A DNA stretch of 64,000 nucleotides from Gemmatimonadota bacterium (GTDB lineage: Bacteria > Gemmatimonadota > Gemmatimonadetes > Palauibacterales > Palauibacteraceae): NCBI GenBank assembly GCA_029262175.1, contig JAJCZV010000099.1, forward strand, positions 35,561-99,560. Direction: 5' to 3'. Of the stretch, positions 1 to 29,492 are shown one piece after another. The translations under genes were made by a program, and so were the position numbers. Each line of letters starts with the position of its first letter. Position 1 is the stretch's first letter. The notes under the pieces are model-generated. The model searched no databases. It worked only from the letters and a program-made list of their open reading frames with translations, and was not told the DNA's origin.

Positions 1-2109
1 AGCGCCACGGACGGCCCGGCTCCGGATGTCCACCCAGCCGTTCAAATCGCTCAGACCGTGGCGCCGGCTGGGGACGAGACCGTGGCGCCGGCTGGGCACG
101 AGACCGCTGCGCCAGCAGTCGACGAGAGCGACTTGGTTCCCGAACTCCAGGTGAAGGTCGGCACGACCCTGTTGTATGTCGACTTGGTGCCTGTCCCCTC
201 GAGCACGGCCATCGATGAGCTTGCGGATCGACTCTTTCGAGCGGACGTGGAGGAGCTCTCCTTTCGTGCGAACACCGGTCCCACGGAGATCGCGCGCTTC
301 TGCCGGCGTCTCGCGAGCTGGGATCGCGGACGAGGGAACTACGATTTCTTCTCTGAGGCGATCGCGGAGCTCGGGATCACCGGAATCGGCGTGCGATGCA
401 CCGAGCGGTTGGATGTCCTCGACTTCGATGTCCTGCCGTCCGGGCAGCTAGAGAGCCTTCGGGTGGAGCAAAGTCATCGCGACTCCCGACGAGACGATCT
501 TGAAGTGTCGCTTCAAAAGGCGTGGGTACGAGTCGACACGGACTGTCCGCTCGACCCAATCGACATGCTCGACCTCGCCTTCCTCGTCGACAGCCAGGCG
601 GACCTCGCGCAGATGCTGCTCGGGATGGCCCGAGGCGAGGGACCGTCGGTCGGCGCGCCGGTCGCTCTGCGCCAAACGGTCTCCGAGCTGGTCCACCTCT
701 ATAGCGGCTTGAGCGAATCGGTGGCCGAGGAACGGTTCGCCACTCTGGCAGCCACGTTGATGGAGCTCGAGCCGGAGGCACGTCGCACGCTCACCCGAGA
801 CGTGCTCCTGCCGGACCTTTTGCAGAGCGGGAAAGCGGCTGCCGTGCTTCGCATGCTCCCGGACGGGGAGATCGTCGAGGCGATCCGCACCCTCGTCGAC
901 CTCGACGTGGGAGGCGCGGGACTGGTGGGCCTCGCGCTCGAGCGGCTCGAGCTTTCCGGGGAACGCCTCGGGACGATGACCCGATCGATGAGCGACAGTC
1001 TGCGACTCGCTCCCCAGCCGGGATCGGCATTGGGAGCGCCTGGCGTCGCGAGTCAACCGACATCCCAGATTCGGCTTGAGTCGGACCACACGGTGCTACG
1101 CGACATGCGCCAGTTGGCCGCCCACGACCTGGGCGTAGACGCGGAGACGGCCAAACAGCTGCGAGCCGTGCGCGACGGCGTGAGCGCAATCGACGAAGCC
1201 GCCGAGCGGCTGCGATGCGTGCTGCTGCTGCTCCCACATATTCGAAATCCAGATCGCGCCACCGAGGTTCTGGCTTCGGTCACGGATCTGCTGCGGCCTC
1301 TTCTTTGGGAGAAGCCTCTGATCGCCGCCGAGCGCATCGCTCAGTTGCTCGATATCGCCAATCGATTGGACGGACTCGACCCGGAAGTCGGTGCCGCGAT
1401 CAAACACGTGGTCGGCGACCTGCTCGACGCGAACTACATCCAATTCCAGGCCGAGCGCTGGCGCGACGCAGGGAAGAGCGATGAAACCGTAACGCAACTT
1501 CTCACCGCGTTGGGACCGACCGCGACCGCGGCGTTTCACGACGTGCTCGAAGAGGCGAGCGATCGACAGATTCGTCGAACGATCTTGACGTTTATGTGCG
1601 CACACGCAGAAGTCTTCGCAGAAAGCCTCTACGATCATCTGGCCGACGCTCGCTGGACGGTCGTGCGCAACTCTGTCCGCGTACTCGGCTTCGCGGCTCC
1701 CGGCGGTGAGGCGGCGGTCGCGAAGTTGCTTGGACACAGCGAGAAGCGCGTGATCCGGGAAGCATTCTTGGCATTGAGTCGAATCGGGACGCCGCGGGCG
1801 GCCGAAGAAATCCTTGGCCAGCTCGAGGCCTCCGACCCACGGAGGCGGGAGATGGCAGAAGATGCCATCAGAAGGTTCCCGGTTGCCGAAGGCGAGAAGC
1901 TGACCGGTCGATTGTTGTCGAAGCCGGAGTTCTACCAAGACCGACCGCAGGTCGCTCGCGCGTTGATCGAACGGTTCATGAACCCCCCATCTCGAGAGGG
2001 TGCGGACTTGCTTCGCCCCCTACTCGGGTTGCGCCTGTGGTTTTGGAAACCGGCGTTGTGTCGTCTCGGGTGGGCGGCAAGCGCGGCGTTGAGCGGAGGA
2101 GGGAAGTGA
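1..2109 (+). CDS. HEAT-repeat (PBS-lyase-like) protein, 5' partial. The frame is open from base 1. N-terminus carries octapeptide repeats TVAPAG(D/H)E
   Basis: 683-aa ORF continuing in-frame to the window edge. C-terminal half shows HEAT/PBS-lyase-like repeats (VRVLGFAAPGGEAAVAKLLGHSEKRVIREAFLALSRIGTPRAAEEIL). The stop overlaps the next start as ATGA. Confidence 0.6.
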   Translation, partial: SATDGPAPDVHPAVQIAQTVAPAGDETVAPAGHETAAPAVDESDLVPELQVKVGTTLLYVDLVPVPSSTAIDELADRLFRADVEELSFRANTGPTEIARFCRRLASWDRGRGNYDFFSEAIAELGITGIGVRCTERLDVLDFDVLPSGQLESLRVEQSHRDSRRDDLEVSLQKAWVRVDTDCPLDPIDMLDLAFLVDSQADLAQMLLGMARGEGPSVGAPVALRQTVSELVHLYSGLSESVAEERFATLAATLMELEPEARRTLTRDVLLPDLLQSGKAAAVLRMLPDGEIVEAIRTLVDLDVGGAGLVGLALERLELSGERLGTMTRSMSDSLRLAPQPGSALGAPGVASQPTSQIRLESDHTVLRDMRQLAAHDLGVDAETAKQLRAVRDGVSAIDEAAERLRCVLLLLPHIRNPDRATEVLASVTDLLRPLLWEKPLIAAERIAQLLDIANRLDGLDPEVGAAIKHVVGDLLDANYIQFQAERWRDAGKSDETVTQLLTALGPTATAAFHDVLEEASDRQIRRTILTFMCAHAEVFAESLYDHLADARWTVVRNSVRVLGFAAPGGEAAVAKLLGHSEKRVIREAFLALSRIGTPRAAEEILGQLEASDPRRREMAEDAIRRFPVAEGEKLTGRLLSKPEFYQDRPQVARALIERFMNPPSREGADLLRPLLGLRLWFWKPALCRLGWAASAALSGGGK
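58..129 (+). repeat. Tandem 24-nt coding repeat: accgtggcgccggctggggacgag x2 plus a degenerate third copy
   Basis: Direct repeat visible at 58-81 and 82-105, with a diverged copy at 106-129. It encodes TVAPAGDE/TVAPAGHE/TAAPAVDE. Confidence 0.7.
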
Positions 2110-3824
2110 TGGCGGTCAAAGATGCGAATCGGGCGGCACCGCTCGCGGTTCTGAAGGCGTTTACCGCGCTCAGGCGGAGCATGTCGCTCTATCCCGACGG
2201 GCACGCGGTTATCGGCCAGAGCGCAGCGGAGCTTCAGCGTGCCGTCGCGCGCGGTCTAAACGAGGGTGGTCGTCTCCGCTTCGACATCATCGGCGGCACG
2301 GCGCACGTCGACGGATATCCGTTTCGAATCGAGAGTCAGGCAAACAGAGAACTCATCGAAGAGTTGGAGAAGGTGGGGGTCGACTGTCTTCAAATCGAAG
2401 AGGGCGTGGACTCCGAGCAGCTCGTCGCCGCCGCGCAACTCATCAACGAGGTGCGCGAGCGCAACGATGGACCAGTGTCGCTGCGTGAGAAGCTCCTGGA
2501 GCGCGAGGTCACTCACCTCAGCATGTCCAAGTTGCTTCCCGTTGGGATGCACCGCGGAAACGCGGATCAGATTCCGGCCCAACCTCCAGCGCCCAGAGAT
2601 TCCGGTTACGCTGAAGCGTTGGAATCGGCGCGCGAGACCGTGGGGGCGGTGTTCGAGGGAGGCTCCCCCGACGCCGACGCCGTCCGCGTGCTTCTCGACC
2701 GGCTCGGGGATCAGATCGTTGATCGTAAGAGCGCGCTCGCCGAGATTTTGGCGGTCAAACGATATGAGAACCATACCTACTATCACTCGGTCAACGTGGC
2801 GTCGCTTTCCGTGCTGTTGGGTCGCCGGCTCGGCCTCCCCGAAGAGATCTTGGAAGTCCTCGCGGAGGGGGCACTCCTCCATGACATCGGCAAGCGTTCC
2901 ATCCCGACCGAGATCATCAACAAACCGGGACCGCTGAACCGGCGCGAGTGGCGGATCATGAAGCGTCACCCGGCCCTTGGCGCGGAAATGCTCGCGACGA
3001 ACGCCGGCTTTTCACCGTTGTCGGCCACGATTGCGCTCGAACACCACCGACATTTCGGCCAGGGCGGCTATCCCGACCTCGGCGAGAACAAGCCGCACCT
3101 CATGTCTCAAATCGTGGCCGTCACCGACACCTATGAGGCGCTCACCGGCGCGCGCACCTATCGGGCACCTCTGATTCCGGACGAAGCCTGTCTGATCCTG
3201 GCGAGCATGGCGGGTGACAAGCTCAACCCCGCGTTGGTTCGGGCGTTCGTGAGTCTCGTGACCTTCTTCCCGTTGGGATCCGTCGTCAGCACGTCACGCG
3301 GCGAGATTGGTGTTGTGGTGGACACGGCCGAGCGTGAGCCGCTGCACCCGACGATCTTCACGATCGACCATCCGCAGTCCACCGGTCGCTCCGGCGTCCG
3401 AATGAACACCGCGGAGCGAGATCACTCCGGCGCTTACATGCGACACATCGTCGATGCACTCCCCGAGAGAGCGCCGGCGCTGCCCCCCGAGGTGTGGGAG
3501 TCGGGCAAGGGCACCACGGTTCCGGTCGAACGGCCGATAGATCCGCTGACGCCGGTCGTCCCAGCGACGGCGGCCGCAATCCCGTCCGGCGCAGCGGACG
3601 TCCCGTACGTGCCGGAGCAAGAGGTGTTCGAGGCGGCCATGGACGGGTCGGCCATGGAAGGCTCCGGCGGCGACGGCCAGTCGCCCGCACTTGCAGCGGA
3701 ATCGGCGGTCGCGACGGCCGATCCTGAACCCGTTGATGCGGAACAAAGTCAAAAGAAGCGAAAGAAGAAGGGGAAAGGGAAGCGACGCGGGCGACCCAAG
3801 CGGAAGCGTCGACGCTCCAGCTAG
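2109..3824 (+). CDS. HD-GYP domain c-di-GMP phosphodiesterase-like protein with lysine/arginine-rich C-terminal tail
   Basis: Motifs HDIGK and HHRHFGQGGYPD sit within a YYHSVNVA...LHDIGK...HHRHFG block, typical of HD-GYP. The ATG at 2109 overlaps the upstream TGA. C-terminus is KKRKKKGKGKRRGRPKRKRRRSS. Confidence 0.8.
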   Translation: MAVKDANRAAPLAVLKAFTALRRSMSLYPDGHAVIGQSAAELQRAVARGLNEGGRLRFDIIGGTAHVDGYPFRIESQANRELIEELEKVGVDCLQIEEGVDSEQLVAAAQLINEVRERNDGPVSLREKLLEREVTHLSMSKLLPVGMHRGNADQIPAQPPAPRDSGYAEALESARETVGAVFEGGSPDADAVRVLLDRLGDQIVDRKSALAEILAVKRYENHTYYHSVNVASLSVLLGRRLGLPEEILEVLAEGALLHDIGKRSIPTEIINKPGPLNRREWRIMKRHPALGAEMLATNAGFSPLSATIALEHHRHFGQGGYPDLGENKPHLMSQIVAVTDTYEALTGARTYRAPLIPDEACLILASMAGDKLNPALVRAFVSLVTFFPLGSVVSTSRGEIGVVVDTAEREPLHPTIFTIDHPQSTGRSGVRMNTAERDHSGAYMRHIVDALPERAPALPPEVWESGKGTTVPVERPIDPLTPVVPATAAAIPSGAADVPYVPEQEVFEAAMDGSAMEGSGGDGQSPALAAESAVATADPEPVDAEQSQKKRKKKGKGKRRGRPKRKRRRSS

Positions 3825-3852: not shown

Positions 3853-4626
3853 TCATGAGGTCCGTCGATGGATATGGTGCACGCTGCGTTGATCGGTCGC
3901 CAGCAGCTGAAGTTCCGATACGTTCACGTGGGGCGGAGCGTTTACCACAAACGAAACGGCCTCCGCGATGTCTCGGCCGGTCAAAGGATCGAGGCCGTCG
4001 TACACCGCCTCTGCGCGCGCCTCGTCTCCTTCGAACCGGACCAGTGAAAACTCGGTCTCGGCGAGACCCGGGCTCACCGAAGAGACGCGGATCGACGTGC
4101 CGAGTAAATCGATGCTGGTCCCCTCAGTGATCGCTCGGACGGCAAACTTGCTCGCACAATAGACGCCGCCGCTGGGGTACACCTGCGATCCCGCGATACT
4201 TCCGATGTTCACGATGTGCCCCGCGTCTCGCTCCACCATGGCGGGCAGAAATGCGCGCGTGACAAACAGAAGCCCCTTGACATTCGTGTCGATCATGCGG
4301 TCCCAGTCATCGAGTTCGCCCTCGTGGATCGGGGCCAGCCCCGCGCCCAGTCCGGCGTTGTTCACGAGGATGTCCGGAACCCGTCCCGCGAGGGTCGCCG
4401 CCGCTTCGGAGAACACCGCGTCGCGGTCCCGCACGTCGACGCTCGCGATCCGAACTTCTACGTCGAATTCACGCGCGAGTCGATCGCCGAGCGCCCGAAG
4501 CCGATCTTCTCGCCGCGCCCACAAGATCAGATCCGCGCCGTCTCGAGCGAGCAGTTCGGCGCACGCTGCGCCGATTCCCGAACTCGCACCCGTGACGAGC
4601 GCGAGCTTTCCCCGAATCCGGCTCAC
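3853..4626 (-). CDS. Short-chain dehydrogenase/reductase (SDR) family NAD(P)-dependent oxidoreductase
   Basis: TGASSGIG Rossmann motif, NNAG, and a Y...K catalytic region (YCASKFAV). The GTG start at 4626 overlaps the upstream peptidase stop as GTGA. Confidence 0.8.
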   Translation of the reverse strand: MSRIRGKLALVTGASSGIGAACAELLARDGADLILWARREDRLRALGDRLAREFDVEVRIASVDVRDRDAVFSEAAATLAGRVPDILVNNAGLGAGLAPIHEGELDDWDRMIDTNVKGLLFVTRAFLPAMVERDAGHIVNIGSIAGSQVYPSGGVYCASKFAVRAITEGTSIDLLGTSIRVSSVSPGLAETEFSLVRFEGDEARAEAVYDGLDPLTGRDIAEAVSFVVNAPPHVNVSELQLLATDQRSVHHIHRRTS

Positions 4627-6734
4627 GGATTGTCGGTCGTCGTCGCAGGAGCCCCGAGCCGCTGATCCATAAAGCTCGCCGCGGCCTCGAAGGCCGCCAG
4701 CCAATTCCGGTGCAGCAGGAACCCGTGGACTTCGTCGGGAAAGACGAGTTGCTCGACCTCTACACCGCGGGTCCGCAACGCCTCGATCAGATCGACCGAT
4801 TCCGAGAACGGCACGTTGCGATCGTCATCTCCGTGGATCAGGAGGACGGGGGAGCGCCACCCGTCTATCCAAGCCATCGGCGAGGATCGGTAGGCCAAAC
4901 GCGCAAACTCCTCCCGCGCCTCGGCCTGATACGAGGGCACGAAGTTGCGAATGACCTCGTTCCAATCGTGTACGCCGTGGACGTCGACGCCGGCAGCGAA
5001 CAAGTCGGAGTTTCGAGCCAAGCCCAGCGCCGTCAAGTACCCGCCATAAGATCCGCCCCAAAGACCGATACGTCTGGCATCGACATCATCTCTCGCCCCG
5101 AGAAACTTTCCGGCCGCAACGACATCGCGGTACTCGCTGGCTCCGCGCGCGCCGTAATCGAGCGCTTCGCGGAAATCCAAGCCGTAGCCGACGCCGCTGC
5201 GATAGTTGACGGAGAGGACGACGTACCCGCGGCTCGCTAGATATTGATTGAGCGCATAGGCGTTGTGGTAGTAGCGAAGGTAGTGCCACCCGAGAAGCAT
5301 CTGTCTTCTCGAACCACCGTGAAAGAAGATCGCGGCGGGTCGCTGCTCGGCGCTCGCACCGGGCGGGAGAAAAAGTTGTCCGTGGATCTCGAGCCCGTCT
5401 TCCGATGTGAACACGACCTGTTGTGGCTCGACCAGCGCGCTGTGCGGGAACTGCGCGGGCATGAACCCCGCGACCATCGGGCGGCGTCCCTCTGTCGTCG
5501 CTACTTCGGCGTGCGCCGGCGTGGTACCGTCGGAGGCGATGAAGGCCACGGTGGATCCGTCGCGCCCGATCGCTGGGCCCCACTCGAGCCCCGATCCCGA
5601 CGTCACCGACTCGGGCGCTCCGCCTGGTGATACGCGCCATAGGTGCCGTCGATCGATGTCGTCTGCGTTCGAAGAAAAGTAGACGGTCTGGCGGTCGCTC
5701 GAGAGCGTTACGTGTTCCACCTCGGATTCGCCGGGCGAAAGCGCGACGGCAGACCCACCGGCAACAGGCACCGCGTAGAGGCGGACCCAGCCGTCACGCT
5801 CCCACGGGAACACGAGGTGTCCCGACGCGGTCCACGATAGTTGCGGCCCGGAGATCCCATGGAAGGCGCTTCCGGGGCCGGCGCTCGCCCGCCAAACCTC
5901 TCGACTGCTGCCATCCGCCGGGTTTGCGATTCGAATCGACCAGGGCAGGGAGGCGCGGACGGGGGCAAAGGGAAGTCGAGCCCCCACGTTCGGAATCCTG
6001 AGAAACGCGATCTCCTGGCCGTCGGCGGACCACACCGGCGAGGCGTCGCGGTCGAGACTCGGGTCCAGATAGGTCACGTCCTGATCCTCAAGCTCGAAGA
6101 TGCCGACGAACGCGTGATCGCCGCGATTGCTCACGAACGCGAGGCGATCGCCGGACGGCGACCACATCAGGTTGCTGGCGCTCCCCCGGATCTGGAGCAG
6201 GGGGGCGACCGTCGGCTCGCCTACGAGCGTCACGGAGTGGATCTGCCCACGGCTCAAGAAGGCCACGCTTCGGCCGTCGGGCGCGACGGCCGGCGCATTG
6301 CCCCTCGCCAGCAAACGACTGCCGCCAGCCAGGGATGCGATCCATAGCTCCCGTTCGATGGCCACGGGCTCGGATGTGGGGTTGGGGATTTCACCGGCGC
6401 GGTTGGGAGCTCCTCCGCGGACGAAGACGACGCTCTTGCCGTCGGGCGTGAAGCGGAGCGCGGCGAGATCCTGTCCGTCGTCGTCAGACCAGTCGGTAAT
6501 CTGCCGACCGACGAAGGCCGGGCCCTCGGCGATCCAGATGTTCCGGGCGCCCCGGTCGTAGCGAATCCAAGCGAAGGCCGACCCGCTCGGTGCGGATACG
6601 ATGTCGGTTGCGAAGGGTGCCGCGAGGATGTCGTCGAGTGAGTACGGGGCTTGAGCAGCCAGCGGCGCGGCAAGAAAAACAGCGACGAACGTCGCAAACA
6701 GCAGCCATCGATTCACGCGCCTACGTCCCGTCAT
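4623..6734 (-). CDS. S9 family serine peptidase (prolyl oligopeptidase/acylaminoacyl-peptidase type) with N-terminal beta-propeller and signal peptide
   Basis: Signal peptide MTGRRRVNRWLLFATFVAVFLAAPLAAQA. WD/TolB-like propeller repeats. C-terminal alpha/beta hydrolase with GGSYGGYL nucleophile motif and a D...H pair. Start is 1 nt after the GNAT stop. Confidence 0.8.
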   Translation of the reverse strand: MTGRRRVNRWLLFATFVAVFLAAPLAAQAPYSLDDILAAPFATDIVSAPSGSAFAWIRYDRGARNIWIAEGPAFVGRQITDWSDDDGQDLAALRFTPDGKSVVFVRGGAPNRAGEIPNPTSEPVAIERELWIASLAGGSRLLARGNAPAVAPDGRSVAFLSRGQIHSVTLVGEPTVAPLLQIRGSASNLMWSPSGDRLAFVSNRGDHAFVGIFELEDQDVTYLDPSLDRDASPVWSADGQEIAFLRIPNVGARLPFAPVRASLPWSIRIANPADGSSREVWRASAGPGSAFHGISGPQLSWTASGHLVFPWERDGWVRLYAVPVAGGSAVALSPGESEVEHVTLSSDRQTVYFSSNADDIDRRHLWRVSPGGAPESVTSGSGLEWGPAIGRDGSTVAFIASDGTTPAHAEVATTEGRRPMVAGFMPAQFPHSALVEPQQVVFTSEDGLEIHGQLFLPPGASAEQRPAAIFFHGGSRRQMLLGWHYLRYYHNAYALNQYLASRGYVVLSVNYRSGVGYGLDFREALDYGARGASEYRDVVAAGKFLGARDDVDARRIGLWGGSYGGYLTALGLARNSDLFAAGVDVHGVHDWNEVIRNFVPSYQAEAREEFARLAYRSSPMAWIDGWRSPVLLIHGDDDRNVPFSESVDLIEALRTRGVEVEQLVFPDEVHGFLLHRNWLAAFEAAASFMDQRLGAPATTTDNP

Positions 6735-6735
6735 C

Positions 6736-7533
6736 TCAGGTCCTTCGCAGGAAGTAGTAGCTGCGCTCCGCACTCTCGTCGCGATGTAGACTTTGAACGG
6801 CATAACCCCTCCTGAGATATGTCATGAACGCGTGTCTCACCGTTTGTCGCCACTGGACGAGTTCACCCTCCGACACCGATGGTGTTGCCAGGTCCGAAGG
6901 CACCTCGATCCAGACCTCGTCCCCGCCCGGTAGATCGAGTTCGCCAGCCATCGACGGACGTTCGACCACGGACTCCTCGTCGAGTCTCCTCGACGGCGCC
7001 CGCACGTTGGCCTCGTCGATGGCCCATTTGACGCGTTTGCTGTCGAGCTCCCATCGCGTGATGAACCGGTCGGTTTCTCCACCGGCGTGCAAGGGGCTTC
7101 CCGTGTCGCCGCCATACATGTTTGGCACGTAGCGAACGATCGTGGCGCCGAGTCGGTTGAGGTTGAGGTGCGCATTCGCCGCAACCATCGGATCGAATGT
7201 CCAGAACACCGTTTCGATACCGCGCTGCAGAAGCTCCTGACGCTGGAACAGCTTGAGGCGTCTGCCCAACCCTCTCCCGCGCGAGTCGGGGTGGACGGCA
7301 AGCATGTGCGACCAGTGCATCGCGGAGCCTTCGAAGGCGCCTGCGAGCGAGTAGACAAAACCGATCATGGCTTCGCCCTCGAACGCGCCGGCGAGCAGTC
7401 CACCCACTTTCTGCGAAACCTGGAGTAACGACCTCGGGACGACATCGGAAAAGGTCTCTCCCCAGGTCGCGCGCTGGAGGCCGACGCACTCTTGAAAATC
7501 CGCGAGTGATTCCAGGTGTCGGAATTCGACCAT
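6736..7533 (-). CDS. GNAT family N-acyltransferase (acetyl/succinyl-transferase-like)
   Basis: GNAT motif A (HPDSRGRGLGRRL) and acyl-CoA binding-like region. Located immediately downstream of, and coupled to, the NSAR/OSBS gene. Confidence 0.65.
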   Translation of the reverse strand: MVEFRHLESLADFQECVGLQRATWGETFSDVVPRSLLQVSQKVGGLLAGAFEGEAMIGFVYSLAGAFEGSAMHWSHMLAVHPDSRGRGLGRRLKLFQRQELLQRGIETVFWTFDPMVAANAHLNLNRLGATIVRYVPNMYGGDTGSPLHAGGETDRFITRWELDSKRVKWAIDEANVRAPSRRLDEESVVERPSMAGELDLPGGDEVWIEVPSDLATPSVSEGELVQWRQTVRHAFMTYLRRGYAVQSLHRDESAERSYYFLRRT

Positions 7534-7534
7534 G

Positions 7535-8668
7535 TCAGACCGCTGCCGTGTCGGGGGCGAACGTTTCGGACTTGAGCGTCAGCGACTCGACCCGATCGAC
7601 GTCTACCTCGACGCCCAGTCCGGGAGATCGCGGCACGTTTACAAAGCCGTCCTCGCTCATCGTCCACTCTGGAGTGACGATGTCTTGTGCCCAGTACCGT
7701 GCGCTCGGTGAAAGGTCCCCCGGCAGAAGGAAGTTGGGGAGCGAAGCCAGCGCCACGTTGTATGCGCGGCCGATCCCACTCTCGAGCATGCCGCCGCACC
7801 ACACCGGGACACCGGCCGCTTGCGCGACGTCGTGTATTCCGATCGAGTTGAGAAACCCGCCGACGCGGCCCGGTTTGATGTTGACGATTCTGCCCGCTTC
7901 CATCGACAGCATGTCTTCTGCGCTGGCGATATCGATGATCGATTCGTCCAGGCATATGGGCGTGTTCAGTTGCTCTTGCAGTCGCGCGTGTCGATACAGG
8001 TCGCCCGCGGCGAGGGGCTGCTCGATCATGATCAGATCGAATGCGTCCAGTTCGGCCAGCGTCTTCGCGTCGGCCAGCGTGTATGCGGCGTTCGCATCGA
8101 CGGCGAGATCTTGATCGGGGCCGAGTGCCTCTCTCACCGCGCGGACGAAATCGATATCCAGACCCGGGCTGATCTTGAGCTTCACCTTTCGGTATCCCTC
8201 GTCGACGGCCGCCTGCGCTTTGGCCGCAAGCGCAGCGGGCGAATCCTGGATCCCGATCGAAATCCCCGTCGCGACGGTGTCTCGCTCGCCGCCGATCCGC
8301 TGGGACAGCGAAACCCCCTGCGCTTGGGCGGACAGACCCCAGAACCCCATCTCGATGGCGGCCTTCGCCATGGGGTGCCCCTGCACACCGTCGTTTAGGA
8401 GATCGCGGACTGCTTCCGGTCCCGCGATCTCCACGCCCAAGACGCGCGGCAGGAGCCATTCGCGTAGGGCCAGCCGTGCGGTGTCGACCGTCTCCGCGGA
8501 GTAGTTCGGGCGGGATCCGCACACGCATTCCGACCAGCTCGTGACGCCGTCTTCATCCTCGAGTTCGAGAAGCAGGATCCGGCGGACGTCCATCCATCCC
8601 GACGAAATGACAAACGGCTCGCGCAGGGAGAGTTCGATTTCCCGGAGTTTGATCTGAGTGACGCGCAT
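7535..8668 (-). CDS. Enolase-superfamily o-succinylbenzoate synthase / N-succinyl(acyl)amino acid racemase family enzyme
   Basis: MR/MLE subgroup motifs: KVKLKI (KxK), DANAAY, MIEQP, CLDESI metal ligands. Length about 377 aa. No men genes are adjacent, but a GNAT is, which favours an NSAR-like role. Confidence 0.8.
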   Translation of the reverse strand: MRVTQIKLREIELSLREPFVISSGWMDVRRILLLELEDEDGVTSWSECVCGSRPNYSAETVDTARLALREWLLPRVLGVEIAGPEAVRDLLNDGVQGHPMAKAAIEMGFWGLSAQAQGVSLSQRIGGERDTVATGISIGIQDSPAALAAKAQAAVDEGYRKVKLKISPGLDIDFVRAVREALGPDQDLAVDANAAYTLADAKTLAELDAFDLIMIEQPLAAGDLYRHARLQEQLNTPICLDESIIDIASAEDMLSMEAGRIVNIKPGRVGGFLNSIGIHDVAQAAGVPVWCGGMLESGIGRAYNVALASLPNFLLPGDLSPSARYWAQDIVTPEWTMSEDGFVNVPRSPGLGVEVDVDRVESLTLKSETFAPDTAAV

Positions 8669-8838
8669 GTAGACTCAACCAGTTGTTGGTAAACAACTTA
8701 GGGGTCACAATGTGGGCCGGCCTGCGACCCCGGACCCTACGACAAACTGCACGCGAGATCTCCGGGGCGCGACCGGCCGTCCCGAGAAGCGGCGCCCAAC
8801 CGTTCAAAAGGAGGAAGCATTAAAACGGAGACCGAGAG

Positions 8839-9231
8839 ATGAAGAGACGTTTCGTTCTGAGAACCACCGTGCTCGTGGCCGCTGGCATGGGGGCGGCGTG
8901 TGGCGCGTCGATTCTGGGCGTGGATCCGAACACCGGATTGTCCGTCGTCGTCTCCAGGGGTCCCCTGCAGCCAGTGGCGATGGAGGGGGAGACCAACGAC
9001 GAGCCCGTGCCCGGCGCTGCGGTGCGAATAAGCGCGACGGAAGGCGGGGGCGCGGAGGAAGTCCGGACCGGCACTGATGGCACGGCCAGAATCCTCGTCC
9101 GGCCGGGCCGATATCGAGTCAAGGTGACGGAGTGCCCCGGTGCGCTGGCGCTACCCGGAGACGCCGTAATCGACGTCGAAGTCGGGAGCTTTGCGCCGGT
9201 CGCTTTGAGTTGCGACACGGGAATTCGCTAG
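8839..9231 (+). CDS. Small secreted/lipoprotein with carboxypeptidase-regulatory-like (CarbopepD_reg) domain
   Basis: Signal peptide with GAAC lipobox-like cysteine. Motif TDGTARI...PGRYRVKV typical of CarbopepD_reg folds. Good RBS (aaggagga) upstream. Confidence 0.5.
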   Translation: MKRRFVLRTTVLVAAGMGAACGASILGVDPNTGLSVVVSRGPLQPVAMEGETNDEPVPGAAVRISATEGGGAEEVRTGTDGTARILVRPGRYRVKVTECPGALALPGDAVIDVEVGSFAPVALSCDTGIR

Positions 9232-12368: not shown

Positions 12369-15300
12369 GTGTCAGTGTCCGAAGCGCACGAGGATCGAAG
12401 GACCAGAAACGTAGACCTGCCGGGCGGGCGGAGCGAGCGCATCGCTCGACTTCGGGATTGTATGTCGGACCGGATCCTCGTGATGGATGGCGCCACCGGT
12501 ACGATGATCCAGGGACTCGATCTGGACGAGGATGCCTATCGGGGAGATCGATTCGCGGGGCATCCCTCCCCGCTCACGGGCAATCACGACCTGCTCTCGA
12601 TCACCAGACCGGACGACATCGCGAGTTTCCACCGAGCCTACTTCGAAGCCGGTGCCGACTTCGTCACCACGAATACGTTCAACGCCCAGGCGGTGTCTCA
12701 AGCCGACTACGGTACTGAGGCCTACGTCCACGAGATGAACGTTGCCTCCGCCTCGATCGCTCGAGGCGTGGCCGATGAAGTGACCGCAACCGATCCGTCT
12801 CGCCCGCGCTGGGTATTGGGCGCCATGGGCCCGACAAACCGAACGGCTTCGCTGTCGCCGGACGTCGAGAATCCCGCCTTTCGCGGGGTGAGTTTTGACG
12901 AACTCGCCAGCGCGTACAAAGAGCAGGCTGCCGGACTCGTCCAAGGTGGCGCCGACGTACTTCTCATCGAGACCGTGTTTGATACGCTCAACTGCAAGGC
13001 GGCGATTTTCGCGATTCTCGAACTCGCCGAGGAGTTGGGCACAGAGATCCCGATCGCGGTGTCCGGCACCATTACCGATCTGTCGGGGCGGACGCTGTCC
13101 GGTCAGACGGTTGAGGCGTTTTGGATTTCTATTCGGCACGCCGATCCGATGTTCGTCGGTCTGAATTGCGCACTGGGAGCCGATGAACTGGCTCCTTATG
13201 TGGCCGATCTTGCCCGCGTGGCCGAGACCCGTGTGAGCTGTCACCCGAACGCGGGACTGCCCAACGAATTCGGCGGCTATGACGATACGCCCGCTCACAT
13301 GGCGAAGGTGTTGGGCGGCTTCGCGGACCGCGGTCTGCTCAACGTCGTCGGGGGCTGCTGCGGTACGACGCCAGACCACATCACGGCGGTGGCGGAGCGA
13401 GTCCAGGGCCTTTCGCCCCGAGTTCCGATCCAGGTGGAACCGTTTCCACGTTTTTCCGGGTTGGAGCCGTTCGTCATTCGACCGGAATCGTTGTTCGTCA
13501 ATATCGGCGAGCGAACCAACGTCACCGGCTCCGCTCGATTTGCTCGTCTCATTCGCGAGGACAACCTGGAGGAGGCCCTAGACGTAGCCCGGGATCAGGT
13601 CGAGAACGGCGCGCAACTGCTCGACGTCAACATGGATGAGGGCCTGCTCGATTCTGAGGCGGCGATGACGACGTACCTAAACCTCATCGCGTCTGAGCCC
13701 GACATCGCCCGTATCCCGATCGTGGTCGACTCTTCCAAGTGGTCCGTCATCGAGGCCGGCCTCAAGTGCATCCAAGGCCGACCCATCGTTAACTCGATCT
13801 CGCTGAAGGAAGGTGAAGAGGAGTTTCTTCGGCAGGCGCGGCTGGTCCAACGGTACGGCGCTGCCGTGATCGTGATGGCGTTCGACGAGGATGGCCAGGC
13901 GGATACCGTCGATCGCAAGGTCGACATTTGTGCGAGGGCCTACGGGCTCCTCACGACCGAAGCGGGGTTTCGCCCCGAGGACATCATATTTGATCCAAAC
14001 GTGTTCGCCGTCGGAACGGGAATCGCGGAGCACGATGAATACGGCAACGCGTACGTGGAAGCGGTGCGTCGGATCAAGACGGAGCTCCCGGGCGCGCTAA
14101 CGAGCGGCGGGATCAGCAACGCGTCCTTTTCCTACCGCGGGAACGATGCCGTCCGAGAGGCGATGCACACCGCGTTTCTCTTCCGAGCCATCGAAGCCGG
14201 TCTCGATATGGGCATCGTCAATGCGGGTCGCCTTCCCGTGTACGACGACATCGACCCAGAACTTCTCGAGGCGTCCGAGGACGTGCTGTTCAATCGTACC
14301 GAAGGCGCGACCGAACGCCTCACGGATCTCGCCACTCGCATTCGGGACAAGGGCATCGAGACGGTCGTCGACCTCGCCTGGCGCGAGGGCACGGTCGAGG
14401 CGCGCCTCGAGCACGCACTCGTGGAAGGGCTCGTCGAGTTTATCGAAGAGGACACCGAGGAGGCCCGACAGAAGTTGGACGTCGCGCTTCAAGTCATCGA
14501 AGGTCCGCTGATGGATGGCATGAACCGCGTGGGCGACCTCTTCGGAAGCGGACGAATGTTTCTGCCCCAAGTGGTCAAGTCTGCGCGAGTGATGAAGAAG
14601 GCCGTGGCGTACCTCACCCCCTACCTGGAGGCCGAAAAAGCGGCTCTGAGGGCTTCCTCCGGCGAGGACCCGGCCGAAGAAGTCGATTCAAAGGGGAAGG
14701 GGAGGATCCTGCTCGCCACGGTGAAGGGGGACGTTCACGACATCGGCAAGAACATTGTCGGCGTCGTGCTGCAATGTAACGGATATCAAGTGGTCGACCT
14801 GGGCGTGATGGTGGCCGCGGAAACGATTCTGGCTCAGGCGAAGGAACACCGGGCAGACGTGGTCGGGCTCAGCGGACTGATTACGCCGTCGCTCGATCAT
14901 ATGGTCACCGTCGCATCGGAAATGGAGCGCGAGGGCTTCGAGGTGCCGCTTCTGATCGGAGGCGCCACTACGTCGCGAAAACACACCGCGGTCAAGATCG
15001 AGAAGCAGTATTCGGGGGCGACGGTTCACGTCCTCGATGCGTCTCGGGCCGTCGGTGTGGTGGGCGAGCTGCTGAGCGAGGAGCGATCGGCGGACTACGT
15101 TGCCGAGGTTCGCGCGGATTACGAGCAGGTCCGCGTCGACTACGCCGAGAGAGACCGCGCCATCGCGCCGATCCAAACCGCGCGAAACAATCGGTTAAAG
15201 ATCGACTTCGGGGCTGTGCCACCGGTCGCGCCTCGAAAACCTGGCATCCACGTGTTCGACCCGGTCCCCCTCGCTGAGCTTGTCGACTACATCGACTGGA

Positions 15301-16148
15301 CTCCGTTCTTCCAAGCTTGGGAGATCAAAGGTCGCTATCCGGAAGTGTTCGAGATGGGCGCGCGAGGCCAGGCTGCGCGAACGCTCTTCGACGACGCTCA
15401 GATCTTACTTCGCAGGATCATCGATGAGAAGCTGCTCGTCGCTCGAGCAGTCACCGGGCTGTTCCCGGCCGCCGCTCGTGGTGATGACATCGTCTACTTC
15501 GAAGATGAGGCACGGTCCCGACCTTTGGTCACCGTGTCGCACCTCCGCCAGCAGATGGAAAAAAAGGCGCCCCGTCCCAACCTGTCTCTGGCCGATCTGA
15601 TCGCCGACGAAGGCTCGGGCGTGCAGGATTGGGGCGGCGCCTTCGCGGTCACCGCGGGTATCGGTTTGGATGTGCTGTGCGCCGACCTCGAAGCCGAGAA
15701 CGATGACTATCAGAGTCTGCTCGCCAAGTCGCTCGCGGACCGATTGGCCGAGGCCCTCGCAGAACGTCTTCACGAGAGGGTTCGGACTGAACTGTGGGGG
15801 TATGAAGTCGAGGAGACGGTGTCCAACGAAGAGCGGATTCGGGAGGCCTATGTCGGGATTCGTCCCGCGCCGGGGTATCCCGCGTGCCCCGATCACTCGC
15901 AGAAGACTCAGTTGTTCGAGCTTCTCGGGGCGGAGGCGCGCACCGGTATCGAGCTCACCGAGTCGTTTGCGATGCTGCCGGGTGCGGCCGTGAGCGGGTG
16001 GTATTTCGGCCACCCCGAGGCGACGTACTTCGGGTTGGGGCGGATCGGGCGAGATCAAGTGGAAGACTACGCGGCTCGACGCGCGATCGAAGTCGCCGAG
16101 GCCGAGCGGCTTCTATCCCCGAATCTCGCCTACGACGCGGCGGAGTGA
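12369..16148 (+). CDS. metH: Cobalamin-dependent methionine synthase (5-methyltetrahydrofolate-homocysteine methyltransferase)
   Basis: All four modules are present: Hcy-binding ([14 protein letters not shown]), pterin-binding, B12-binding ([25 protein letters not shown]), and AdoMet activation domain. 1259 aa. Confidence 0.95.
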
Positions 16149-16152
16149 CGAG

Positions 16153-18003
16153 TTGAGCGGCGCCCGGGATCGTATCCGTGAGATGATTGCCGACGACACC
16201 GTCCATGTGGTAGATGGCGCGATGGGTACCGTCCTCTATCAGCGTGGCGTGTTCGTCAACGAATGTTACGACGAGCTCAGTCTCAGCAATCCGGAGGTCG
16301 TGCTCGCCGTGCACGCCGAGTACGTGCGAGCGGGCGCGGAACTCATCGAGACGAATACGTTTGGCGCCAACCCCGTGAAGCTCGGGGCATTCGCGCTCGA
16401 CGATCGGACCGAAGAGATCAACGAAGCGGCGGCTCGCCTGGCCGTGCAAGCGTCGCGGCAGCGTGCGAGCGTACTCGGGGCCATGGGTCCGCTCGGGATA
16501 CGCATCGAGCCTTGGGGGCCGACCTCGGTCGATGAGGCTGCCGCCCTGTTCGAACGGCAGGTCATGGGTTTGGCCGCGGGCGGCGTCGACGGATTCATGC
16601 TCGAGACCTTCGCCGACCTGGACGAGCTGCTCCAAGCGGTGCGCGCGGTGCGAAACATCGCGGGGGATGCACCGGTGTTCGCGCAAATGTCCTTCGGCGA
16701 TGAGGGCGCGACCGCGTACGGAACGACCATCGAGGCGGCCGCGGCCGGGCTGGAAAAAGCTGGGGCCGATGTCATCGGGCTCAACTGTTCCGTGGGCCCT
16801 TCGTCGATGCTCGTGGGTGTGGAACGGATGGCGGCTGCCACCGGCCGTCCCGTCTCCGCGCTTCCAAACGCGGGTCTGCCGCGCGACGTCGGTGATCGAA
16901 AGATCTATCTGGCCAGCCCGGAATACATGGCGCGCTACGGCCGCCGGATGGCGGAGTCCGGGGCGCGGTTCGTCGGCGGGTGCTGCGGAACGACGCCGGA
17001 GCACACGCGTCACATGGTCGAGCTGCTCGGGACCAAGGGGCTTCGTCCGGCGCGAGTCACCAGCGCTCCCTCCAGGAGTGGCGAGCGGCCAGGCAGCGCC
17101 GAGTCCACCCCGCTGGCGGATCGATCGGCGCTCGGCCGCCGACTCGCTGCGGGCGAGTTTATTCGGGCCGTCGAACTCACGCCGCCGCGTGGGTGGGAGC
17201 CCCGCGAGTTGATCGCCGGGGCGCGTCACCTTCGAGACGTGGGGGTCGATACGGTTCACATCGTCGACGGCCCGGTCCATCGAAGCCGCGTAGCCTCGCT
17301 CCCGGCGGCGATCGTCATTGAACGCGAACTCGGGATCGAAACCGTCGCGCACTACAGTTGTCGAGATCGAAACATGCTCGGCATGGTGAGTGACATTTTG
17401 GGCGCGGCTGCCGCCGGGTTGCGAAACCTCCTCCTCGTCACGGGGGATCCTCCACGCGGCGGCCCCTACGACACGGGTGGGGTCTACGACATCGATAGCA
17501 TCGGTCTGACCAATGTCGTTCGGCAGCTCAACCTGGGCCGAGATCCGGGCGGCGGTTCGATCGGGGCTCCCACGTCCTTCGTCGTCGGCGTGGCCGTGAA
17601 CCCTGGAGCCCTCGATCCAGAGGAGGAGATTCGGCGGTTCGCGTGGAAGGCGGAGGCCGGGGCCGATTTCGCCGTGACGCAGCCGAGTTTCGACCCGGAC
17701 GGATTTCTGAAATTCGCCAAGCGCATCGAAGAGTTCGGCGTGCCGCTTCTGGCCGGGTTATGGCCGCCGCTTTCATTGGAGAACGCGGAGTTCCTGGCCA
17801 ACGAAGTGCCTGGTGTGCGGGTGCCGGAGTCCGTGCTCACTCGGATGCGCAAGGCGAAGGACCGGGGCGAGACCGCGGCAGCGCAGGAAGGGGTCGACGT
17901 GGCAAGAGAGGTGCTGTCGGAGATTCGGTCGGCCGTCGCGGGCGTCTTGGTGTCGGCGCCGTCCCACCGTGTGGACCGAGCGATCGCCGTACTCGAAGAG
18001 TAG
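16153..18003 (+). CDS. Bifunctional homocysteine S-methyltransferase / 5,10-methylenetetrahydrofolate reductase (YitJ-like fusion)
   Basis: N-terminal HMT domain (VVDGAMGTVLY...GCCGTTPEH). C-terminal MetF domain (ELTPPRG, HYSCRDRN, LLVTGDPP). Begins 4 nt after metH. Start codon is uncertain (TTG at 16153 or ATG at 16183). Confidence 0.85.
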   Translation: MSGARDRIREMIADDTVHVVDGAMGTVLYQRGVFVNECYDELSLSNPEVVLAVHAEYVRAGAELIETNTFGANPVKLGAFALDDRTEEINEAAARLAVQASRQRASVLGAMGPLGIRIEPWGPTSVDEAAALFERQVMGLAAGGVDGFMLETFADLDELLQAVRAVRNIAGDAPVFAQMSFGDEGATAYGTTIEAAAAGLEKAGADVIGLNCSVGPSSMLVGVERMAAATGRPVSALPNAGLPRDVGDRKIYLASPEYMARYGRRMAESGARFVGGCCGTTPEHTRHMVELLGTKGLRPARVTSAPSRSGERPGSAESTPLADRSALGRRLAAGEFIRAVELTPPRGWEPRELIAGARHLRDVGVDTVHIVDGPVHRSRVASLPAAIVIERELGIETVAHYSCRDRNMLGMVSDILGAAAAGLRNLLLVTGDPPRGGPYDTGGVYDIDSIGLTNVVRQLNLGRDPGGGSIGAPTSFVVGVAVNPGALDPEEEIRRFAWKAEAGADFAVTQPSFDPDGFLKFAKRIEEFGVPLLAGLWPPLSLENAEFLANEVPGVRVPESVLTRMRKAKDRGETAAAQEGVDVAREVLSEIRSAVAGVLVSAPSHRVDRAIAVLEE

Positions 18004-29358: not shown

Positions 29359-29492
29359 CGCCTGGATCTCCTGACCGGCTCCGCGCTCGCCTCGGCTCCG
29401 TTTCCGTCCCCCAACCTATTATCTTCGAGGCTACATCGGGTCGCTGGTGCGGCGCGGATGGTACTCGGTATGCATGACGGAGGGGAGACTCT

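Follow-up and report, generated by a model that had tools for sequence, protein, structure and literature searches.

A four-gene operon built on an NSAR–GNAT pair, with a putatively exported S9 peptidase and an SDR, in Palauibacter-type Gemmatimonadota

The four-gene block and its borders

In the uncultured marine Gemmatimonadota genome studied here, the minus-strand block 8668..3853 of the 64-kb window (the whole stretch of DNA that was analysed) comprises, by ORF listing and sequence, four tightly packed genes for an NSAR/OSBS enzyme, a GNAT, an S9 peptidase and an SDR (Table 1). The junctions, read directly from the sequence, are TGAcATG between NSAR and GNAT and TGAgATG between GNAT and S9, each with a 1-nt gap, and a 4-nt overlap, GTGA, between S9 and SDR; this is the spacing that the initial annotation had reported. 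When genes were called independently on the identical public contig, all four came out with the same boundaries. Profile searches likewise bore out the family that had been proposed for each of the four products.

Table 1. Features of the operon and its borders, in window coordinates
Feature	Position	Strand	Basis
NSAR/OSBS-subfamily enolase-superfamily enzyme, 377 aa, operon gene 1	7535..8668	-	TIGR01928, MR_MLE_N/C
GNAT acyltransferase, 265 aa, extra C-terminal domain of ~100 aa	6736..7533	-	Acetyltransf_1, AF2 model
S9 serine peptidase, 703 aa, putatively exported	4623..6734	-	Peptidase_S9, PD40, DPPIV_N
Predicted signal-peptide coding part of S9, residues 1-28	6651..6734	-	N-terminus inspection and orthologues
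Classical NADP-type SDR, 257 aa, GTG start, YdfG / YMR226C / IsfD group	3853..4626	-	adh_short, motifs
Divergent intergenic region, 170 bp, upstream of operon	8669..8838	.	probable promoter/5'UTR
Divergent gene bordering operon upstream	8839..9231	+	
Convergent HD-domain gene bordering operon	2037..3824	+	

A sequence scan found no promoter-like sites inside the four-gene unit, and terminator-like sites there were not commoner than in shuffled sequence. The divergent intergenic region is the probable operon promoter/5'UTR; no sigma-70-like site was found in it. It carries, before the NSAR gene, the motif GTGCAGTTTGTCG at 8752..8740; of the 35 orthologous upstream regions, at least 8 have a TGCAG(G/T)TTG-like motif some 70-90 nt upstream. 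The region also contains an inverted repeat, AGTTGTT-TACC-AACAACT (8698..8681), which is missing from the orthologous upstream regions.

The NSAR/OSBS enzyme and its GNAT partner

The product of the first gene scores 300.9 bits against TIGR01928 (cutoff 200.65) and also matches MR_MLE_N/C. Among solved enzymes it is closest to the Amycolatopsis NSAR (1SJA, 316 bits), followed by Thermus 2ZC8 and Deinococcus 1R0M; the three match it over the full length at 307-317 bits, and they share with it the metal ligands D/E/D, the KxK motif, K263 and, in the second shell, R266. The OSBS of Listeria, Enterococcus and Alicyclobacillus rank behind them. The equivalents of K161/K163, D189, E214, D239, K263 and R266 are kept in the operon enzyme and in 75 relatives. 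Judged by profile and residues, the enzyme is thus, as first annotated, a member of the NSAR/OSBS subfamily with every catalytic and NSAR-enabling residue intact. Unlike the three solved enzymes, however, the operon clade mostly has Trp (28/34) as the 20s-loop residue equivalent to T25, a position held by T, V, A or S in other GNAT-linked NSARs, and the operon enzyme has Ser and Gly in place of F23 and M50; because of these substitutions its side-chain preference may differ.

The second gene had been read as a GNAT acyltransferase, and this reading holds: its product exceeds the Pfam Acetyltransf_1 cutoff (26.9 bits against 20.7), the CoA motif R85-x-x-G88-x-G90 can be read from the sequence, and the AF2 model has a GNAT fold (pLDDT 89.4). 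The best Foldseek matches, PA4866, YncA and RimI, are free-amino-acid and N-alpha acetyltransferases, matched over approximately the N-terminal two-thirds with TM-scores of 0.45-0.50 on query length. We regard the enzyme as a candidate D-amino-acid N-succinyltransferase, the donor presumably being succinyl-CoA.

The true conserved unit is the NSAR–GNAT pair. The two genes are adjacent on one strand, in either order, in 72 of 80 species-level genomes. These belong mainly to Gemmatimonadota and to the Thermoanaerobaculia of the Acidobacteriota; a few are from Ignavibacteria/Bacteroidota. A signal-less M20 aminoacylase directly follows the pair in at least nine genomes, and four Gemmatimonadota loci carry both an M55 D-aminopeptidase and M20. 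The GNAT family HMM scores 131-184 bits in Lysinibacillus, Bacillus sp. F19, Priestia, Deinococcus MP1 and Sulfitobacter, where the GNAT genes adjoin peptide or amino-acid transporters (in Lysinibacillus in the order peptide MFS–M20–GNAT–menC), and the family is also found in Bacillaceae M20–GNAT–menC operons; no Geobacillus entry was among the matches listed.

The published architecture for D-to-L conversion is succinyltransferase–NSAR–desuccinylase (bioRxiv 10.1101/2022.03.03.481873; PMC12006748). The operon resembles it in that an NSAR/OSBS-subfamily racemase with its full set of catalytic residues is coupled, in translation, to a GNAT of the same family as in the Bacillaceae operons and in the GNAT–NSAR–M20 triplets of other phyla, which agrees with the earlier recognition of NSAR plus succinyltransferase as the known Geobacillus pathway. 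It differs in that the order is NSAR then GNAT, that M20 desuccinylase is absent from the operon and its vicinity, and that the operon also includes genes for a putatively exported S9 peptidase and for a YdfG-like SDR.

It might be asked whether the enolase enzyme is, or doubles as, a menaquinone o-succinylbenzoate synthase, its tie to the other genes being secondary. The best NCBIfam model bears that name, the enolase family is promiscuous with bifunctional members proposed outside men operons (PMC12006748), and the Gemmatimonadota orders differ in menaquinone genes, classical men genes being present in some of them (PMC9426454). Nevertheless, we consider this very improbable, given that the closest solved relatives are NSAR-active enzymes and not OSBS-function members, that the gene is glued to GNAT in 72 of the 80 genomes, that no men gene was recognised among the recurrent neighbours of the pair, and that Gemmatimonadales favour the futalosine route yet retain the pair (PMC9426454; PMC3914697 table).

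The S9 peptidase and the SDR beside the pair

The third product matches Pfam Peptidase_S9 (143.9 bits), the PD40 propeller and DPPIV_N, and consists of a predicted signal peptide, a PD40 beta-propeller and an alpha/beta-hydrolase catalytic domain. Across 28 homologues there is no variation in GGSYGG, the motif of the nucleophile S562, in the run D636-D638 or in H670. On inspection its N-terminus, MTGRRRVNRWLLFATFVAVFLAAPLAAQA before PYS, has n, h and c regions and ends in AQA; clade orthologues have a hydrophobic stretch ending in A-x-A/A-Q-x before a conserved YS(L/V)(D/E)DIL block, and in the AF2 model residues 8-21 form a low-confidence helix detached from the fold. The predicted secretion of this enzyme, already suggested by the initial annotation, is in keeping with such a conserved signal-like N-terminus; NSAR, GNAT and SDR are without one. 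The S9 family assignment stood as well, but the proposed affinity to acylaminoacyl peptidases did not: DPP-IV (2ECF, 5YP1), S9 carboxypeptidase (8WT1) and acylaminoacyl peptidases (5L8S, 4HXE) share the beta-propeller, the alpha/beta-hydrolase and the Ser-Asp-His triad, yet the operon enzyme is only 17-22% identical to them (TM-scores 0.5-0.7) and equidistant from the three groups by sequence and fold. No DPP-IV sequence alignment covered the N-terminal half of its propeller.

The SDR scores 170 bits against adh_short and contains the motifs TGASSGIG and YCASK; like YdfG, YMR226C and IsfD, it combines classical SDR motifs with two Arg residues behind beta-2, a pair that typically goes with NADP use. 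YdfG and IsfD (199-203 bits) and YMR226C (172 bits) are its best matches, and its best solved relatives are 6IXJ, a sulfoacetaldehyde reductase, YdfG of E. coli (3ASU) and YMR226C of yeast (3RKU). The best NCBIfam match, YdfG PRK10538 at 221.7 bits, lies below the equivalog cutoff of 411, and any substrate named for the SDR is a guess. Four further Gemmatimonadota loci have weaker homologues (42-47% identity) in the neighbourhood of the pair.

Gene-neighbourhood comparison found the complete order NSAR–GNAT–S9–SDR conserved in 30 species-level genomes, all of one Palauibacter-type Gemmatimonadota clade; the 4-nt S9/SDR overlap is kept in most of them, and NSAR/GNAT spacing in relatives is mostly a 1-nt gap or a 4-nt overlap. 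Three genomes (L029/L031/L033) have NSAR–GNAT–SDR without S9, and the SDR is missing at one locus (L053). The flanking genes, for a DUF5916/CBM9 protein and an HD-domain protein, are syntenic too, so that the order, confined to one clade, argues only weakly that S9 and SDR are functionally coupled; their retention beside the pair may reflect inheritance and not selection.

From this one could argue that only NSAR and GNAT cooperate. The S9 would then be an exopeptidase with a general housekeeping role and the SDR a 3-hydroxy-acid dehydrogenase of general function, both of which landed behind the pair in the clade ancestor and are co-transcribed without metabolic link. The incomplete loci would fit, as would S9 orthologues of ~60% identity that stand alone in unrelated contexts in the four lineages sampled (HR33, Gemmatimonadales, Vicinamibacteria and Rhodocaloribacter, falling in Gemmatimonadota, Acidobacteriota and Rhodocaloribacter), and a second S9 paralogue 13 kb away in the window. 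We find this reading rather unlikely. Unrelated lineages repeatedly have peptidases next to the pair, three independent S9 types among them; loci whose proteins are only 56-76% identical still keep the S9/SDR overlap and the minimal spacing of GNAT and S9; and SDR homologues recur near the pair, as noted above. The recurring exported-type hydrolases are M55, Amidohydro_3, a class A beta-lactamase-like protein and a fusion of an S12 beta-lactamase fold with a VanX-like M15, all with signal or lipoprotein peptides, whereas both M20 types are without; a second S9 type (L059/L061/L066) is of the exported class, as is the operon S9. In the Bacillus sp. F19 plasmid cluster (CP085711.1; Opp-type ABC transporter–menC–GNAT–M20–S9 peptidase–S12 beta-lactamase-family–class A beta-lactamase-related hydrolase), a one-strand NSAR–GNAT pair likewise accompanies a PD40-propeller S9 and other peptide hydrolases, but the F19 enzyme lacks a signal peptide and shares only 22% identity, and the cluster has M20 and a peptide transporter and lacks an SDR.

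The initial annotation went further, having the S9 replace the M20 desuccinylase, or free N-acyl amino acids from N-blocked peptides, in an undescribed salvage and stereo-inversion route. The absence of M20 was confirmed: the operon has none, although other relatives carry one there, and searches of the whole 64-kb window and of the 8 kb around 34 related clade loci gave none either. Acyl-Xaa cleavage is also chemically conceivable, since the structural neighbours include S9 enzymes with carboxypeptidase activity, Geobacillus 8WT1 and the Deinococcus S9 peptidase. Acylaminoacyl peptidases are among the neighbours too. The replacement itself is poorly supported and, in our opinion, very unlikely: the conserved signal peptide would put the S9 in another compartment than NSAR, GNAT and succinyl-CoA, the S9 of Bacillus sp. 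F19 coexists with M20, neofunctionalisation is hard to reconcile with orthologues that stand alone and yet are highly identical, the enzyme is not specifically close to S9C, and NSAR–GNAT–SDR exists without S9.

A putative D-amino-acid salvage route

Gene structure, family membership, catalytic residues, pairing, gene order and the predicted S9 signal peptide are what the analysis shows. Beyond them, we incline, with some reserve, to the explanation that the pair salvages D-amino acids while the S9 supplies and the SDR assists, a scheme whose acyl donor, substrates, S9 and SDR roles and distal desuccinylase we infer. The cytoplasmic GNAT would N-acylate free D-amino acids, presumably with succinyl-CoA; the cytoplasmic NSAR would epimerise the N-succinyl-amino acid at C-alpha; and an L-specific desuccinylase, presumably encoded elsewhere in the genome, would release the L-amino acid. 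Since no desuccinylase was found in the operon, the window or the 8 kb around the 34 loci, the route is incomplete in cis.

In the Palauibacter-type clade, two widespread genes would have been placed behind the pair and co-transcribed with it. The exported S9 exopeptidase most likely acts on peptides outside the cytoplasm and, by analogy with the M55, S12-M15 and amidohydrolase exports flanking the pair elsewhere, most likely supplies peptide-derived amino acids, which may include D-residues of cell-wall or detrital peptides; the stand-alone orthologues and the second paralogue speak against this supply, and the adjacency could be incidental. YdfG reportedly (Fujisawa et al. 2003) accepts L-allo-Thr, D-Thr, L/D-Ser and 3-hydroxyisobutyrate. 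For the cytoplasmic, NADP-dependent YdfG-type SDR, the most plausible task would be the oxidation of hydroxy acids or beta-hydroxy amino acids that lie beyond the reach of the racemase route, such as D-serine or the L-allo-threonine to which D-threonine would be converted. We take the operon to be a lineage-specific variation on the known D-to-L pathway, not a system of a new type.

Organization of the operon and its upstream region

The genes for the NSAR/OSBS enolase, GNAT acyltransferase, S9 peptidase and SDR follow one another on the minus strand (table), and the directly read boundaries, together with the junctions TGAcATG (1 nt), TGAgATG (1 nt) and GTGA (4-nt overlap) in that order, bear out the tight spacing proposed in the initial annotation. 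The same four genes were called on a public contig of identical sequence (Logan SRR15505518). Since the upstream neighbour is divergent and the downstream neighbour convergent, the four genes form a discrete unit. Inside the operon, consensus scans returned no promoter-like sites and terminator-like hairpins were rarer than in shuffled sequence, with nothing above chance in either the sigma-70 or the intrinsic terminator scan.

In a window of approximately 64% G+C, the start of NSAR is preceded at a distance of 13 nt by an AT-rich inverted repeat (AGTTGTT-TACC-AACAACT). It was considered as a conserved operator and rejected, because it is absent from every orthologous upstream region compared and is thus peculiar to this genome. 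At least 8 orthologous loci share a GTGCAG(G/T)TTGT-like motif, located some 70-90 nt ahead of NSAR, that may act as a promoter element.

Features of the operon, its surroundings and other genes of the window
Feature	Position	Strand	Remarks
NSAR/OSBS enolase (gene 1)	8668..7535	minus	377 aa; boundaries read directly
GNAT (gene 2)	7533..6736	minus	265 aa; boundaries read directly
S9 peptidase (gene 3)	6734..4623	minus	703 aa; boundaries read directly
SDR (gene 4)	4626..3853	minus	257 aa; GTG start; boundaries read directly
NSAR residue W25	8596..8594	minus	20s-loop position
Inverted repeat	8698..8681		AT-rich
GTGCAG(G/T)TTGT-like motif	8740..8752		possible promoter element
Small secreted CarboxypepD_reg protein	8839..9231	plus	upstream, divergent
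HD-domain gene	2037..3824	plus	downstream, convergent
MetH and, immediately after it, a fused homocysteine S-methyltransferase + MTHFR protein	12369..18003	plus	full-length cobalamin-dependent methionine synthase, 1259 aa; fusion, 616 aa
Second PD40-propeller + Peptidase_S9 protein	21395..23479	plus	694 aa
Divergent NHEJ pair	26761..30338	minus, plus	three-domain LigD (865 aa, minus); Ku (281 aa, plus)

Identity of the four encoded proteins

In a profile search the first gene product scored 300.9 bits against TIGR01928 (cutoff 200.65), it carries the enolase domains MR_MLE_C (181 bits) and MR_MLE_N (42.6 bits), and its alignment to the Amycolatopsis NSAR recovers the KxK lysines, K263, the metal ligands D189/E214/D239 and R266, the last a second-shell residue tied to NSAR activity by the Glasner laboratory (PMC12006748), so that its assignment to the NSAR/OSBS subfamily, in the MLE subgroup of the enolase superfamily, holds. 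The same residues are kept in 34 of 34 homologues from the Palauibacter-type Gemmatimonadota with NSAR-then-GNAT order (hereafter the clade) and in 40-41 of the 41 other GNAT-linked NSAR homologues. Its best solved relatives are racemase-active, namely the enzymes of Amycolatopsis (1SJA, 316 bits), Thermus (2ZC8) and Deinococcus (1R0M), and the OSBS members of Listeria, Enterococcus and Alicyclobacillus rank below them. W25, in the 20s loop, corresponds to Thr25 in Amycolatopsis; tryptophan occupies this position in 28 of the 34 clade NSARs and T/V/A/S in other GNAT-linked NSARs, which may reflect a shifted side-chain preference.

The second gene product has about 100 extra C-terminal residues and a Pfam match that is weak and above threshold. 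Its CoA motif, R85-x-x-G88-x-G90, reads R85-G-R-G88-L-G90, with G86, G88 and G90 invariant or nearly so across the family, and its AlphaFold model, built from 20 homologues (pLDDT 89.4), was matched by Foldseek with probability 1.00 to PA4866, YncA and RimI, which are acetyltransferases for free amino acids or N-termini. The predicted fold and the acyl-CoA pyrophosphate-binding motif R/Q-x-x-G-x-G/A both place it in the GNAT superfamily, in agreement with the Pfam match and with what had been proposed from the sequence. We regard it as a candidate D-amino-acid N-succinyltransferase. Its family is large (more than 7000 matches), and the Gemmatimonadota-type profile matches the GNATs of the Lysinibacillus, Priestia and Bacillus F19 operons full-length at 131-184 bits; the profile search in Bacillaceae retrieved Lysinibacillus, Neobacillus, Peribacillus and others, with no Geobacillus among the 120 matches listed. 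A literature search on COG3375 found no papers.

The third gene product matches Peptidase_S9 (143.9 bits) and a PD40-type propeller, and its triad (S562 in GGSYGG, D636-638 and H670) is invariant in 28 homologues. The AF2 model (pLDDT 80) comprises a propeller and an alpha/beta-hydrolase domain. By its Ser-Asp-His triad and the predicted C-terminal alpha/beta-hydrolase behind a beta-propeller, the protein is a member of the S9 family. Its N-terminus (MTGRRRVNRWLLFATFVAVFLAAPLAAQA, followed by PYS) is by inspection a textbook Sec signal peptide, and in all orthologues examined a comparable stretch comes before the conserved start of the mature protein; its description as secreted rests on these two observations. 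The best sequence matches are to DPP-IV (124 and 113 bits), then to an S9 carboxypeptidase and acylaminoacyl peptidases (95-65 bits), and the Foldseek hits show 17-22% identity to DPP-IV, S9 carboxypeptidases and acylaminoacyl peptidases alike; neither comparison places the protein decisively with the acylaminoacyl peptidases (S9C), with DPP-IV or with the carboxypeptidases. The second S9 protein of the window, 13 kb from the operon, indicates a genome with several S9 peptidases.

The fourth gene product scores 170 bits against adh_short and contains TGASSGIG (TGxxxGxG) and YCASK (YxxxK) in its translation, which confirms the SDR call and, judged from these motifs, makes it a classical SDR; it is of the NADP type. 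The closest proteins are the sulfoacetaldehyde reductase IsfD, E. coli YdfG and yeast YMR226C. Against the NCBIfam YdfG model PRK10538 it reaches 221.7 bits, under the equivalog cutoff of 411, although this is still its best-scoring family, so that a likeness to YdfG may be claimed at the subfamily level only.

Conservation and neighbours of the NSAR-GNAT pair

We scanned for the GNAT family in one genome per GTDB species and compared the resulting 80 loci (individual loci are denoted by L numbers) with the four window proteins. NSAR is the same-strand neighbour of GNAT in 72 of the 80 loci and lies nearby in 3; the stretches retrieved for the other 5 do not contain it. GNAT precedes NSAR in 38 loci, which belong to other Gemmatimonadota, to Acidobacteriota (Thermoanaerobaculia) and to a few Ignavibacteria and Bacteroidota; NSAR precedes GNAT in 34 loci, all from one Gemmatimonadota clade including named Candidatus Palauibacter species, and only there are S9 and SDR joined to the pair. 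The full NSAR-GNAT-S9-SDR arrangement is found in 30 loci, 3 of which have an exported Amidohydro_3 between S9 and SDR, while S9 is missing from 3 further loci (NSAR-GNAT-SDR) and SDR from 1 (NSAR-GNAT-S9). In many clade loci S9 and SDR still overlap by 4 nt, and NSAR and GNAT are separated by 1 nt or overlap by 4 nt. NSAR-GNAT-S9-SDR is a real, clade-wide variant of the known pathway of D-to-L amino acid conversion by succinyltransferase, NSAR and desuccinylase. A sub-clade (L024, L026, L027, L053) carries the exported Amidohydro_3 (~570-586 aa, lipoprotein-like N-terminus) after the S9 gene, placed in L024, L026 and L027 between S9 and SDR, and many Palauibacter loci have a gene of about 268 aa (ORF cluster c20) after SDR, which the window lacks.

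The proposed check of neighbourhood conservation thus succeeded as regards the four-gene order but fell short in breadth, since the order is confined to one clade whose flanks (a 1200-aa protein, a DUF5916/CBM9 protein and an HD-domain protein) are syntenic too, and vertical inheritance alone could account for much of the conservation. This bears on the chief rival explanation, that S9 and SDR are unrelated passengers of the pair, which we judge rather unlikely.

All ORFs of the 80 loci were clustered and the representatives scanned against Pfam. A signal-less M20 aminoacylase directly follows GNAT-NSAR in at least 9 loci, and four Gemmatimonadota loci have an M55 D-aminopeptidase and a second M20 type. 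An exported fusion of about 800 aa, with an S12 beta-lactamase fold and an M15 (VanX-like D-Ala-D-Ala dipeptidase) part, adjoins GNAT-NSAR in L037, L042, L043, L047, L049, L065 and L076; a class A beta-lactamase-like protein, Amidohydro_3 proteins and a GntR/FCD regulator also recur beside the pair. The non-M20 hydrolases there all have a signal or lipoprotein peptide at the N-terminus, which neither M20 type has. Three unrelated S9 types adjoin the pair: that of the clade, an exported DPP-IV-like one (L059, L061, L066) and one in Bacillus. In many Gemmatimonadota, namely L037, L043, L046-L049, L055, L065, L075 and L076, the gene immediately upstream of GNAT-NSAR encodes a conserved multi-pass membrane protein of about 390 aa with no Pfam match, a candidate D-amino-acid or peptide transporter. 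L059 and L061 each encode two paralogous 265-aa-type GNATs (42% identity to the query) and, upstream of NSAR, the exported DPP-IV-like S9, an Amidohydro_3 gene and a GntR/FCD regulator.

Similar arrangements are carried by plasmids: peptide MFS transporter-M20-GNAT-menC in Lysinibacillus fusiformis, amidohydrolase…GNAT-menC in Priestia megaterium, the pair together with amino-acid ABC transporter genes in Deinococcus radiodurans MP1 and Sulfitobacter, and, in Bacillus sp. F19, Opp-type transporter-menC-GNAT-M20-S9 peptidase-two beta-lactamase-family hydrolases, where the S9 is 22% identical to that of the window and has no signal peptide. There is a report of the pathway in Geobacillus, and Lysinibacillus and Roseiflexus have been inferred to possess it; the literature that we found on NSAR with succinyltransferase/desuccinylase, or on the Geobacillus N-succinyltransferase, came only from the Glasner laboratory (bioRxiv 10.1101/2022.03.03.481873; PMC12006748). 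The occurrence of the same GNAT family in M20-GNAT-NSAR operons lends good support to the idea, already put forward from the sequence, that NSAR and succinyltransferase represent the core of this pathway.

No M20 desuccinylase was detected in the window (tblastn with both M20 types and two amidohydrolases), nor within 8 kb in the 34 clade loci, and tblastn gave no window matches to M55, S12-M15, GntR or the membrane protein without Pfam match. As for menaquinone, no men genes were recognised among the recurrent neighbours in the 80 loci; a crotonase-family gene (ORF cluster c46) beside NSAR in some Acidobacteriota was rejected by eye as MenB, having no MenB-like motifs. Within the phylum, the futalosine route predominates in Gemmatimonadales and the classical one in SG8-23 (PMC9426454), and the single Gemmatimonadetes genome in a 2014 survey apparently has all three mqn markers and an incomplete classical set (PMC3914697).

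Proposed roles of the S9 peptidase and SDR, and implications

The initial annotation had the S9 peptidase standing in for the M20 desuccinylase, or feeding N-acyl amino acids, in an undescribed salvage route. This is unlikely: S9 is an exported protein, in contrast to GNAT, NSAR and SDR, which like succinyl-CoA reside in the cytoplasm, the S9 of Bacillus sp. F19 accompanies an M20 instead of replacing it, NSAR-GNAT-SDR loci without S9 exist, neither sequence nor predicted structure gives a preference for acylaminoacyl peptidases, and orthologues of about 60% identity stand alone among unrelated neighbours in bacterium HR33, Gemmatimonadales, Vicinamibacteria and Rhodocaloribacter, which gives S9 the look of a general, conserved exopeptidase rather than of an amidase that was recruited. 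(An SDR near the Rhodocaloribacter orthologue, with 37% identity over 192 aa, is not an orthologue of the window SDR.) On the most economical reading, the exported S9 would degrade peptides outside the cytoplasm and thereby supply substrate, as fits the recurring class of exported peptide hydrolases beside the pair. We lean, with some reserve, towards the pair as a D-amino-acid salvage core, with S9 as its exported supplier and the desuccinylase encoded elsewhere in the genome.

For the SDR, YdfG-type enzymes are said to oxidise L-allo-threonine, D-threonine and D/L-serine, as reportedly described by Fujisawa et al. in 2003, and C-alpha epimerisation of D-threonine gives L-allo-threonine. It would therefore be metabolically sensible for a YdfG-type SDR to dispose of such products, and we infer its role in the pathway on this ground. 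This role is weakly favoured by four other Gemmatimonadota loci in which an SDR homologue (42-47% identity) lies close to the pair; the SDR beside menC in Deinococcus MP1 was dropped as support, for its similarity to the window SDR is generic only.

Taken jointly, the four genes might represent a succinyltransferase/NSAR module that was rewired, in Palauibacter-type Gemmatimonadota, into a dedicated four-enzyme route harvesting D-residue peptides, a reading that we consider improbable as a whole. In it, S9 may be an exported exopeptidase specialised in freeing substrates, the clade tryptophan in the 20s loop may retune the side-chain specificity of NSAR, the SDR may remove beta-hydroxy epimers (L-allo-Thr, D-Ser) beyond the repair of racemisation, and desuccinylation may fall to a non-M20 enzyme or to S9 acting as an acyl-Xaa carboxypeptidase.

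Furthermore, the survey points to systematic misannotation: partner NSARs are routinely labelled 'o-succinylbenzoate synthase/menC', and GNAT family members carry the label 'chorismate synthase' in some JGI and UniRef records, both probably propagated errors.

The D-amino acids of bacterial cell walls make up a sizeable reservoir of organic nitrogen in the sea and in soils; to our knowledge, their reclaiming by uncultured heterotrophs is poorly understood, and we know of the succinyltransferase-NSAR pair being characterised only in Bacillota-type systems. The pair is now seen to be widespread across both Gemmatimonadota and Acidobacteriota, to occur at a few loci of Ignavibacteria and Bacteroidota, and to be repeatedly wired to exported D-peptide hydrolases, and one marine and sponge-associated order has a distinct version that includes S9 and SDR but lacks a neighbouring desuccinylase. 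What is gained is a sharper view of where a known module occurs and in which context, and no new kind of system. If S9 and SDR are functional parts, the known pathway would gain peptide harvesting upstream and a sideways branch to beta-hydroxy amino acids; if they are not, the locus would be a well-conserved example of the core of that pathway.
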